Shown piece by piece: positions 3,670 through 53,943 of a DNA stretch of 64,000 nucleotides; position 1 is the stretch's first letter, and every line of letters starts with the position of its first letter. The position numbers and the translations under genes are program-made. The notes below the pieces were generated by a model. The model saw only the letters and a list, made by a program, of their open reading frames with translations, searched no databases and was not told the origin of the DNA. The stretch covers positions 89,342,001 through 89,406,000 of the forward strand of contig NC_043000.1 in assembly GCF_006345805.1 (NCBI RefSeq), given 5' to 3'. Source of the stretch: Octopus sinensis (Eukaryota).

Positions 3670-4233
3670 CAACACATGTTTTGTTAGCGACAGTGTCCAC
3701 TATATGAATCAAATTGTTAAAATCTCTCGCGTTGAATACATGAGAACTATCCGGATCTGTTGCAATTTCGTTTAATTCTTTGCGACTAATTGAAGAGCCG
3801 ATCCCAATGGAAATCAATGTGATATTGCTATGTCTTGCAGCTTCAGCTTCTAATTTGGTGTCCTCAGGCAATGTCGATTCACCGTCGGTTATTATAACAC
3901 CAATTTTTGGTACATTAGTACGAGCACCGTTGGCGTGGGTGAACATGTGATAATGCATAAAGTTAATAGCTTGATCTGTGTAGGTATTACCAACTTTGTA
4001 GTGTATTTTTGAGATGGCTTTCTTGATGGCACTTTTGCTATTGAATTTGTTCAGGTGAAATTCTAGATGGGGACGGCTGTTGTAACTCATAGCACCGATT
4101 TGTATATGTTTTGGACCAATTTCGAATTTGTCTACGAGTTTCTCGACAAAATCAAGCATCTTATGGAAGTTTTTGTAACCGACACTTGCTGAGGAATCCA
4201 TAACAAAGACAATATCAGCCGTAGCGTAACATT
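3670..4233 (-). CDS. Exon 15: VWA domain 5 (single 564-nt exon)
   Basis: Acceptor tttcccag|AA. Translation ECYATADIVFVMDSSASVG...GNTYT...ITDG...NKTCV. Donor G|GTAAGC implies further exons downstream. Confidence 0.92.
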
Positions 4234-4576
4234 CTGGGAAACAAATGAAACAAAACTATTTAAAACATAGTGAAATTAATGACTAAATACATAATTACAA
4301 CATATAATAAACAATATCTTTTGAGAAAGTTTCGAGAAGTAAAAAAAACACATTGTAAACATATTAGAAAAGTAGTATATGTATATATATATATATATAT
4401 ATATATATATATATATATATATATATACAATAACAGCTGTAAGATAATACATACTTACAAAGCATTCAGGTTTTTTTTACAAATATTATATGTAGTATAT
4501 TATATATATATATATATATATATATATATATATATATATATAAGTAAATGCATGTATACATATGTACATATACATA

Positions 4577-4790
4577 TACGAAAGGTACTGAAAATTCCTG
4601 GCTGTAAGGATATCGTGAAAGGCCTGGCTGGAGGCCCAACCTTCCGAGTTCTTTCACAGGGCTTAGAAAAACTGAAGGACCACTGCAATAAGTGTGTGAA
4701 TCTGAGAAATATATTGAATAAAATCATAATTAAACGATCCTCCTGTATCTTCTTTTACCCAAAACCAGGAACTTTTTCAGTATCCTCACG
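4577..4790 (+). mobile_element. Short mariner-derived non-autonomous element
   Basis: Imperfect TIRs (tactgaaaattcctgg / ccaggaactttttcagta). The interior encodes a mariner-like C-terminal remnant (SQGLEKLKDHCNKCVNLR). Confidence 0.6.
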
Positions 4791-51049: not shown

Positions 51050-51950
51050 TCACAAGTGTAACAGTTGATCTTTCTGTCCTGTAACATTAGTTTCCTGACT
51101 TATTTTCTCAACCCACGACGGAGCAGTTTCAGAATTGCTCTATAGCTCTCAGGAATCATTAAGCATGTATTTCTAAATAGACCACTTTGCCACTGAACGT
51201 CTTTTCGGCTACTTCGTTACTATCTGCATATACCACGCTACAAAATTGACGATATGCTAACAATTAATAAAGTTATCCCTTGTGCTACACCTCTCCAAAT
51301 ATTGCGGTGCAGTCAGATGTGCAATGTACCAACTCGGTTTGTTTCATTTTTTACCTCGTCCCCCGTTTTGAATATCATTTATGTAATTCCTTTGCAACTC
51401 CCTCGACCGACGAACAATATATTACACCACATAGTTGAAGACAACTAAAATTGTTCTTTTGGGGAAAGAAGAAAACATCCTTATGCTTATCGTGAAGCAG
51501 ATTTTTTTCTCTGTTTGATAAATGATTATGGCTTTTATGCCCTTTATTTTCTTACATGTGCTTACTGTGCTCTAAATGGAAGTGTAGTCAAATCCTATTT
51601 TATGGACTCAGCTATGTTCTAAAATAAGTCGAAAGGTAAGCTACTATAAATCGGCACGAACTTTCCGGACAACCCAATAATTTGAGACCAAGTATGGATC
51701 TGAGACAGATGTATCTATTGCCTGCACGATATAATTCTTTTGTTGCTCTGTTTCTTCAACTCAAATTGTTTAGATGGGCCATGGCACTTTTTACACCAAT
51801 TAGATCGATCTAGGCAATGACTTGCCCAATATGTAAAGATTTTAGTGATTGCTTCAACTTATTGTTATACCATAAAGGAGAATTTTCGAACTACACTCAT
51901 GCATTCGAAAATGTACTGCCTATGTACATTCAGTTCTCAACAGCATATTT
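51050..51950 (-). mobile_element. Highly degenerate LINE reverse-transcriptase remnant
   Basis: Minus strand shows RGVAQG and a YADS (YADD-like) remnant, with many stops. Confidence 0.4.
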
Positions 51951-53864
51951 TTGATACTGGAAATGTCATATTCTTCTAAAATTTTGACATTTCATATCTT
52001 ATCTTGCCGTTTTATATTGCAGGTGTTGCGTAGACTGTACATAAAACATCATCAACAACAACAATAATAATCCTTTCTACTGAAGGCACAAGTCCTTGAA
52101 ATTTTGGGGGAAGGGAATAGGCGATTACATCGACCCTAGTGTTTCACTGGTACTTGATTTATCGACCTCGAAAGGATGAAAAGCAAAGTCGATCTCGGCG
52201 GAATTCTATAATAATGAGGAGAAGAAGAAGAAGAAGAAGAAGAAGAAGAAGAATGTTTTCAAATTCTGGGCACAGGGCCTGTGATTTCGGGAGAGGATGT
52301 TGAGATTACAGGATATAGGTGTTGTGATTACAGTAAGTTTGGACATAGGCAAAGAAGAATTCATTTTCATGTCCTCCCCTCTGGAGGTGAATGAATCATT
52401 TAATAGGAGAGGGACTCTTCTTTACGGGGGAAAAAAAACAGAAACTGCCTCAGAGGTTGTAGATTCCACTTCAGCGAAGCGTACCTCATTATCTCAGGAA
52501 ATGTACATCTGCTCATAGTTTTAATAAATTGATTTTGCATGGGGGGGGATTTTTTTACAAAACACTGTGGTCCCATTCGGCTTAGCCTCTTTTTTGCGTT
52601 TTAGGATCTGCTTTGATCGATTTGAAAATATTTTTGTGGTTGGTGGTGTCCATGTACCGAAATACACTATCTGATTTGAGTGTTTAAGCGTTTCAGAAAA
52701 ATGGAGTTAGTGAAAAAATTAAAATTTTTGTTATACTCCAGTTTAGGGTTCCACTTAAAGTTTCTATAAGTAAATAAACAAATAAAAATGTGATTATCTA
52801 TGCACATTAAGCTTGCTAGAATCCAAAGTCTCAGGAAGTGTTTTGAAAGCAGTATTTTATACAATTCCCCATCCGACTACTGGAGACACTACCATACAGA
52901 TTCTTCATTTTAGCCCAAATTTTTACCAATGTCTGTCTCCATTACCAAATTTGTTGAATAAACTAACATTCATTATTGACTTGGGACATGTTTACAAGAA
53001 ATAATATACTCTTAGAAAATGCATATACTTTATACGTTGTGGTGCACCTGAGCACTGTACACAATAATTTCATTATCATTTTATCTACCCCAGAAGGACG
53101 AAAAGCAAAGTGATGAATTTGAACGCAGATTTAAAAGAGCCTTAATTAAACCTTGCCCGATATTGAGTCCCCTGTCCTGTTATTTCTACAATTGACTACA
53201 CACTTAGGTGGCTAATAATAATAATAATAATAATAATATAATAATAATAATAATAATAAATAATAATAATAATAATAATATATAATAATAATAATAACAA
53301 TAATAATAATAATGATAATAATAATAATAATAATAATAATAATATAATAATATAATAATAATAATAATAATTATAATAATAATAATAATAATAATAATAA
53401 CTGTCGTCATTTTTTGGTTCCCTGAGGTAAAACCTCAGAATGGATACAGCGAAACGACTGTGATTGGAATCGAATTTTCAACTTGCTGCCCAGTAAATTA
53501 AGCAATAATTCTATCGATCGTATCAGATGAGAATTGCATTGAAAGAAATCAAATATTTTGTAGACAAAAGCGTATTAAATTCTCATTATATCACTTCAAA
53601 GAGAATGCTATTAAAGAACACAAAGACGAGAAAAAAACTTCACAACAAACAAAAAGTTAAATAATTATCAAGATGTAAATTTAAGATTAATTAGGAAGTG
53701 GTTATCAGGGTCAAACTATATGACTACAATGGTCGAAGCCTAAAGCAAAATAATTAGATCGAGTATACATCCTGACAAAGAAGTATGTTCTTTGTTTTTT
53801 ATATTAAAATAGTTATATATTGTAATTGCATTCGTTAAATATATGGTAAATAATTTTTTCTTAC

Positions 53865-53943
53865 CTGGTTTAGCTGCTAAGCTGCCACCACAGAGCAGCA
53901 AAGCAAACCAGTAGAGGGAATGCATCTTTGTCATTTTTGACAT
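53865..53943 (-). CDS. Exon 1: signal peptide (MSKMTKMHSLYWFALLLCGGSLA/AKP)
   Basis: Hydrophobic core followed by a small-residue cleavage site (SLA). Donor CCAG|GTAAG at 53864 is phase 1, matching the exon 2 acceptor. A TATA box lies just upstream. Confidence 0.8.

Follow-up and report, generated by a model that had tools for sequence, protein, structure and literature searches.

The window analysed here, the whole of a 64,000-nucleotide stretch of Octopus sinensis DNA (NCBI RefSeq assembly GCF_006345805.1, contig NC_043000.1, positions 89,342,001 to 89,406,000 of the forward strand), carries on its minus strand a gene whose 15 coding exons run from window position 53943 to 3670. The gene is real, intact and expressed, and one transcript crosses a frame break that the assembly places in exon 7. 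Its product, built of VWA and TSP1 domains followed by a tail of ShK and VWC repeats, is by sequence and domain order the octopod form of an old, unnamed family of predicted secreted matrix proteins in molluscs and brachiopods; by the same comparison the family is not cephalopod-specific.

One gene across the exon 7 break

The assembled exon 7 has 228 nt, against 229 nt in its twin exon 3, and the reading frame stops at codon 433. Reads were compared over positions 32850-35520 in 4 of the 24 listed public runs, and all four (X1, X2, X15 and X16) contained one extra base at 33195/33196. The identity of this base differed between the unspliced runs X15 and X16, from one study, and the spliced runs X1 and X2, from two studies. 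The contigs of X1 and X2 had exons 6 and 7 spliced together, with the 1,902-base intron removed, and that of X2 reached exon 8. Because the extra base was found in every run compared and exons 6 and 7 were spliced together in two studies, the shortfall of one base in exon 7 is an error of the assembly. The preliminary description of this stretch, made from its letters alone, had counted 15 exons and treated them as one gene, which is borne out, and had missed the one-base gap.

RefSeq breaks the locus at exon 7 into two models, P0155 (LOC118763184) and P0077 (LOC115210527, Octopus sinensis). Across exons 7-15, P0077 and the window translation agree at 670/670 residues; beyond that point P0077 has about 900 residues more. 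The chain is undivided in O. vulgaris (P0153, 2,007 aa), O. bimaculoides (P0154, 2,002 aa) and Argonauta hians (P0171, 2,006 aa). P0153 differs from the window translation by four residues besides the break and by three extra N-terminal residues, and P0171 is a full-length orthologue with 75% identity.

Thirteen exons were located by manual motif and splice-site work, and the 39- and 30-nt linker exons by means of P0077. All 14 introns between the exons have GT...AG ends, a GT donor also follows exon 15, and introns that fall between domains are all in phase 1. Pfam was run on nine exon translations (exons 2-4, 6, 8, 10, 12, 13 and 15), and all nine gave VWA or TSP_1 over the curated cut-off. 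The exons, all on the minus strand, are as follows.

53865..53943, minus: coding part of exon 1, signal peptide; agrees with the N-terminus of P0153, P0154 and P0155
45054..45394, minus: exon 2, first part of VWA1; Pfam VWA, E 1.2e-27
39558..39786, minus: exon 3, second part of VWA1; Pfam VWA, E 5.5e-13
38714..38863, minus: exon 4, TSP1 repeat 1; Pfam TSP_1, E 5.3e-10
36205..36231, minus: exon 5, 9-codon Pro/Thr linker; shared by P0153 and P0155
35159..35499, minus: exon 6, first part of VWA2; same as exon 2 at 297/341 nt; covered by spliced contigs
33029..33256, minus: exon 7, second part of VWA2; one base absent from the assembly near 33196
27344..27493, minus: exon 8, TSP1 repeat 2; Pfam TSP_1, E 7.4e-11; its start matches the free end of contig X2
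25056..25082, minus: exon 9, 9-codon Pro/Thr linker; present in P0077
14664..15230, minus: exon 10, VWA3; Pfam VWA, E 1.9e-48; three skin-mucus spectra fall here
13088..13126, minus: exon 11, 13-codon linker; found via P0077
10789..10926, minus: exon 12, first part of VWA4; Pfam VWA, E 4.9e-11
8562..8984, minus: exon 13, second part of VWA4; Pfam VWA, E 7.6e-29
7301..7330, minus: exon 14, 10-codon linker; found via P0077
3670..4233, minus: exon 15, VWA5; Pfam VWA, E 5e-51; the ShK/VWC tail is coded past window base 1

Four weak candidates for additional exons from a splice-site scan were rejected, as they occur in no orthologue; the same scan had also overlooked two linker exons. Two likely gene-model slips were seen in the other octopods: a short linker is missing and an odd Cys gained near residue 1415 of P0153, and the second ShK repeat is missing near residue 1160 of P0154.

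Domain architecture and the molluscan family

The full O. sinensis chain comprises about 2,018 residues (441 + 1,577), of which the window encodes about 55% (1,111 residues). Its order is a signal peptide, two VWA-TSP1-Pro/Thr modules, three further VWA domains, two ShK, two VWC, one ShK, five VWC and three ShK repeats. The part within 3670..53943 had been described beforehand with the same coordinates and order, and the Pro/Thr modules proved to be 9-codon exons only. A hydrophobic stretch with a predicted helix at residues 7-17 marks the putative signal peptide, through which the protein would be secreted. As had also been noted, every VWA domain (5/5) has the complete metal-ion-dependent adhesion site (MIDAS), with D-S-S-T-D at the MIDAS columns, and two terminal Cys.

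Extension of the gene past window base 1 through P0077 gave a tail of about 900 residues, in which profiles built from fetched proteins recognised six ShK-like and seven VWC-like repeats. With Pfam, ShK in P0077 scored slightly over the cut-off and VWC under it (17.4 vs 27.6 bits); VWC passed the cut-off in the Lingula relative. The nearest match of the tail in the ESM Atlas was a molluscan ShK/VWC cluster (score 0.90), and its sole PDB sequence match was to 97 residues of NOV, a CCN protein (E 7.6e-5).

No membrane segment was found in the full-length chain P0153, whose 19-residue hydropathy peaks at 1.37, against 2.71 for the membrane segment of P0041 described below, and whose C-terminus is polar. 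The same chain has no Gly-X-Y run of at least 4 triplets, no RGD and no furin-type site; 21 N-glycosylation sequons are present. The number of Cys per domain in P0077 is even (2, 6, 6 or 10) and none lies outside the domains, and the native protein is therefore predicted to be a monomer. The VWA/TSP1 head contains 1.8% Tyr and no low-complexity repeats of the glue type.

Two homologue searches with the tail, which gave 13 matches among 1,298 candidates and 32 among 8,000 scored, yielded 37 distinct proteins together. The order VWA-TSP1(n)-VWAx3-ShK-VWC was present in 11 of them including the P0077 fragment, the other carriers coming from Haliotis, Aplysia, Batillaria, Saccostrea, Mercenaria, Ruditapes, Sinanodonta, Mizuhopecten, Dreissena and Lingula. 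All named matches were from molluscs or Lingula, and the doubled VWA-TSP1 module was found in one protein of the 37, from Argonauta. Squid, cuttlefish, nautilus, annelid and flatworm proteins were not among the matches of these searches, which sample words and lengths and do not imply absence. A search with exon 2 among proteins of up to 2,000 residues gave 2 matches from 107 candidates, neither from octopus.

Haliotis XP_071091672.1 (P0027), Saccostrea LOC133206079 (P0175), Mercenaria LOC123550590 (P0176), Mizuhopecten LOC110457477 (P0194), Aplysia LOC101848762 (P0191) and Lingula LOC106173996 (P0045) share the order VWA-TSP1-VWAx3-ShKx2-VWCx2-ShK-VWCn and have full MIDAS. Identity along the whole chain was 38-43% in the four relatives measured. 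These relatives have a single VWA-TSP1 module, in contrast to two in octopods, and most finish with ShK and two further VWC repeats; the Lingula variant has a C-type lectin domain at the N-terminus and three TSP1 repeats. No described function was found in the literature for the relatives named here.

The VWA domains were also sorted by position. A tree was built from 67 of 108 VWA domains, with 41 omitted as long branches, near-identical repeats or unnamed or unrelated rows. Octopod VWA1 and VWA2 together grouped with the gastropod and bivalve VWA at position one (support 77/79), VWA3 with that at position two (86/65), VWA4 with position three (98/92) and VWA5 with position four (85/80); only the group of octopod VWA4 is strong. 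Four positional labels and an outgroup required 4 changes on this tree, the minimum possible, as against 31.3 when shuffled. Sixteen rows lay outside the groups, and the Lingula domains did not sort by position. Eight collagen-type VWA rows, chosen by their Gly-X-Y runs, stood on their own side of the tree (100/100). The earlier proposal of a lineage-specific cephalopod adhesive is not supported, in view of the single-module architecture in gastropods and bivalves, its variant in the brachiopod and the position-by-position grouping of the molluscan VWA domains.

Several related arrangements were seen beside the family. A second molluscan subfamily of 3,300-4,000 residues has 0-4 VWA domains and more than 20 VWC-like repeats (P0181, P0183, P0184, P0170 and P0182). 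P0041 (Dreissena polymorpha XP_052223521.1) has three VWA-TSP1-Thr/Pro modules, then a membrane segment and a short tail, and is thus TRAP/CTRP-like; its VWA groups with the first VWA of the octopus protein's family, and a gene-model artefact is possible. P0118 (Sycon ciliatum) and P0038 (Elysia crispata) alternate VWA and TSP1 without the ShK/VWC tail.

Octopod duplications and the surrounding repeats

The feature specific to octopods is the doubling of the VWA-TSP1-Pro/Thr module. TSP1 repeat 1 is identical at 42/49 positions between Octopus and Argonauta and at 30/49 to repeat 2 within a species; since it is closer between the genera than to its own repeat 2, the duplication predates the Octopus-Argonauta split. 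The first VWA exon showed the opposite pattern, with 92/110 identities between the two O. vulgaris copies and 72 and 77/110 to Argonauta. Exons 2 (45054-45394) and 6 (35159-35499) are more similar than the remainder of the duplicated module, and fourfold sites differed at 7/49 in exons 2/6 vs 15/32 in exons 3/7 (Fisher p 0.002). This pattern points to gene conversion of exons 2/6 in Octopus, to which faster evolution in Argonauta could have contributed. An octopod paralogue (P0013, P0160 and P0173) carries 6 to 8 VWA domains and the same ShK/VWC tail, with no TSP1; accession numbers suggest that it adjoins the VWA-TSP1 gene.

The window is AT-rich with abundant microsatellites, and several repeats and mobile elements lie around and within the gene. 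A Tc1/mariner-type element at 61066-62752 has 251-nt inverted arms, 92% complementary, flanking a broken transposase with HTH_Tnp_Tc3_2 and DDE_3 matches in separate frames. A fold-back at 55702-56474, some 1.8 kb before the start codon, resembles a miniature inverted-repeat transposable element, with 286-nt arms (98% complementary) and a second pair nested inside. Mariner transposase fragments occur in intron 9 at 17723-18396 and 21285-21572 (Transposase_1 matches), and 59899-60462 looks by eye like a transposase remnant, with no convincing Pfam match. An interspersed repeat in intron 6 (34690-34940), resembling a short interspersed element, reached a summed depth of about 3 million vs 50 on each side, in the spliced runs too. 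A local duplication of about 350 nt (950-1301 and 1504-1856) has 93-94% identity, and a 283-nt repeat is present in two introns (16135-16417 and 29725-30007) with 96% identity.

Proposed function and comparison with known systems

We further considered what the protein may do. By alignment count, the MIDAS is complete in 53/53 VWA domains of eleven family proteins vs 12/24 in four Gly-X-Y-bearing proteins; given this completeness throughout the family, we argue that each VWA may bind ligand via a metal ion. The head of the O. bimaculoides protein (P0157), modelled with AlphaFold, showed well-folded domains, with a mean predicted local distance difference test score of 81, linkers below 50 and a predicted template modelling score of 0.32; the arrangement of domains in the model is unreliable. 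Its best Foldseek match was the mussel protein PTMP1 (E 2.6e-32), including the form with a zinc-occupied MIDAS.

The protein was also sought in published proteomes. In an O. vulgaris skin-mucus table, among 3,654 of its 5,937 peptide-spectrum-match rows, at least 4 high-confidence spectra belong to the orthologue P0153, at residues 348-364 (VWA2) and 603-616, 633-641 and 642-657 (VWA3), and at least 3 further spectra to the octopod paralogue (PMC10138644). The nine-residue peptide at 633-641 is common to other VWA proteins. Of the secreted materials suggested in the preliminary description, mucus gained peptide support, and nothing was found that speaks for egg cement, sucker cuticle or cartilage. 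In the posterior salivary gland supplement, which uses Trinity ids, the rows listed gave 0 matches to two peptides and three accessions (PMC7693380), a result that carries no weight either way. A literature search found no description of the architecture or the gene; supplements were outside this search, so that the protein may appear elsewhere under a collagen-like name. EKC40283 in a zebra mussel shell paper is a one-peptide cross-species annotation only and was not used, and Perna shell VWA proteins and Argonauta Pif, BMSP and LamG3 were set aside for their different architectures.

The interpretation that we favour, with a little more confidence than doubt, is that of a soluble, secreted beads-on-a-string glycoprotein that, by analogy with PTMP1, bridges components of skin mucus or connective tissue non-covalently, through several metal-dependent sites. 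Each VWA would hold Mg, Mn or Ca at its MIDAS and grip an acidic side chain of a partner, which may be collagen or another mucus or matrix glycoprotein. Five such sites on flexible linkers, more arms than PTMP1 has, would bridge several partners, and the result would be non-covalent, metal-dependent cross-linking of the skin mucus layer or of the connective tissue beneath. The TSP1 repeats may add glycan binding, and the disulfide-rich tail may form a protease-resistant stalk or a second binding region. Metal binding, ligand, cross-linking and tissue of origin are what we infer; the metal-dependent cross-linking put forward earlier is plausible, and the skin surface or the dermis is favoured as the site of action.

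Several observations weigh against this interpretation. The PTMP1 fold match is partly due to two VWA domains in a row (root-mean-square deviation (rmsd) 9.8), and tree support is moderate for three of the four positional groups. The mucus signal is thin, with all seven listed spectra from one raw file, and the mucus was scraped from the arms, with haemocyanin and intracellular proteins in the same table (PMC10138644), so that haemolymph or dermis may be the source. In limpet pedal mucus, neither the 14 tabulated proteins nor the supplements, queried with six annotation terms, yielded a family member.

The haemocyanin in that table (PMC10138644) also fits an unlikely alternative, namely a haemolymph or wound-sealing protein that would be a functional analogue of VWF: its VWA row would bind exposed collagen or microbes, its VWC/ShK tail would recruit haemocytes, and it would leak into mucus. 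Three tandem VWA domains with a VWC run resemble the A1-A3 and C-domain part of VWF, and the family is retained in the sampled gastropods and bivalves whatever their life style. However, the Pfam scan showed neither VWD nor a cystine knot, RGD is absent, free Cys through which multimers could form are lacking, and a literature search for haemolymph data found none. A broader, tentative and rather doubtful proposal combines this with the cross-bridge: an undescribed, independently assembled VWF analogue of molluscs and brachiopods, in which metal-binding VWA domains stand in a row on a long VWC/ShK stalk, conserved as a metal-dependent cross-linker of skin mucus or wound matrix, whose valency octopods would have raised twice, by module duplication here and by VWA expansion in the neighbouring paralogue.

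The match of the tail to NOV, and database labels such as 'cysteine-rich motor neuron 1' and 'kielin/chordin-like' on tail fragments, would suit a matrix-anchored growth-factor modulator, in which the VWA head tethers to collagen and seven VWC repeats bind BMP/TGF-beta in the manner of chordin, kielin, CRIM1 or CCN proteins. We consider this improbable, as VWC in P0077 stays under its Pfam cut-off and the more than 20 such repeats of relatives are easier to reconcile with a structural stalk than with a sink for signals. Still less probable is a dedicated cephalopod glue or hard-material protein of egg cement, sucker cuticle or cartilage with module duplication as the adaptation. VWA and TSP1 domains do recur in marine adhesives (PMC12817120, PMC4597212), and the VWA number is raised in octopods, to 5 here and 6-8 in the paralogue; but abalone, sea hare, oyster, clams and scallop have the orthologous architecture, the head is Tyr-poor and without glue repeats, and gland-specific evidence was not found. 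We give hardly any credence to a TRAP/MIC2-like cell-surface adhesin, to two genes or to a pseudogene broken at exon 7. MIC2 and TRAP do match the whole VWA-TSP1 unit, but a membrane segment is lacking, collagen VI alpha-3 and PTMP1 rank above them by sequence and PTMP1 by fold, and TRAP and MIC2 superposed poorly across the junction (rmsd 18.5 for TRAP), though the domain arrangement of the model is itself unreliable. The RefSeq split into P0155 and P0077 would suit two genes, yet the base present in 4/4 runs, the splice seen in two studies and the single chain of three other octopods refute a split gene or a pseudogene.

These results correct a split and mislabelled gene model and bring together a family scattered in databases under 'collagen XII-like', 'COL6A', 'cartilage matrix protein' and 'CRIM1-like'. 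With its MIDAS intact in cephalopods, gastropods and bivalves, it is a candidate metal-dependent cross-linker for the mucus or connective tissue of molluscs. Being built from ordinary extracellular domains, it should be useful rather than surprising to specialists.

Compared with known proteins, the octopus chain has tandem Cys-closed VWA domains in common with collagens VI alpha-3 and XII and with matrilins, and collagen VI alpha-3 was its top PDB sequence match because it has many VWA domains. Gly-X-Y runs of at least 8 triplets were absent from 37/37 family proteins, the Pfam scan of P0077 gave no FN3, Kunitz or EGF, no clear coiled coil was seen, and the VWA domains lie outside the collagen-type group of the tree; identity with collagen VI or XII was therefore rejected. 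Matrilins have EGF repeats between or after their VWA domains and a C-terminal coiled coil with interchain Cys. The octopus chain ends in ShK, a crude heptad scan gave VWA helices only, there is no out-of-domain Cys to join chains, and exons 1-9 are wholly VWA, TSP1 and linkers with no EGF, so that it is not a matrilin either. The absence of a collagen triple helix and EGF from the window, and the conclusion that the protein is not a collagen VI or matrilin orthologue despite its database labels, had been anticipated and hold.

TRAP, MIC2 and CTRP are type I membrane proteins with a cytoplasmic motor-binding tail. The likeness to them drawn earlier holds for a VWA directly followed by TSP1, with MIC2 and TRAP aligning across this junction end to end (E 2.3e-23 and 9.1e-17); it fails elsewhere, as the octopus protein has neither membrane segment nor cytoplasmic tail and has a long Cys-rich ShK/VWC half at its C-terminus. 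The VWA-TSP1 pairing can be explained by exon shuffling because the domain-boundary introns are all in phase 1, and the alternation probably arose more than once, as the sponge protein P0118 suggests. The Lys-Tyr dyad of ShK toxins is placed between the third and fourth Cys. This dyad belongs to channel-blocking ShK peptides (PMC7333891). Here Lys-Tyr was found in 0/6 repeats and Lys-Trp in one, and the repeats are embedded in a 2,000-residue chain without a furin-type site, unlike such toxins, which are small free peptides.

VWF and gel-forming mucins carry VWD-C8-TIL assemblies, a C-terminal cystine knot and free Cys for multimers. The octopus protein has three tandem VWA domains and then several VWC repeats, as does vertebrate VWF, but the Pfam scan and Cys count of P0077 gave no VWD-C8-TIL, cystine knot or free Cys, RGD is absent, and the MIDAS is full in every VWA. 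VWF, a chordate protein, derives from mucins (PMC3308698). Closer in setting is the Pinctada fucata byssal TSP-1 protein, with 24 TSP1 repeats, one VWA and GGSS repeats (PMC4597212): it is likewise secreted, combines TSP1 with a MIDAS-bearing VWA and is proposed to act through Ca, in a different architecture, and such Ca-dependent VWA/TSP1 proteins of oyster byssus are a precedent for the proposed mechanism (PMC4597212). PTMP1 (PDB 4CN8, 4CN9 and 4CNB), which ranked first by fold and second by sequence, is itself byssus-specific, with 454 residues and two VWA domains only, and without TSP1, ShK or VWC. It is likewise a secreted molluscan tandem-VWA protein with MIDAS, and it is stated to bind collagen (PMC6337334).

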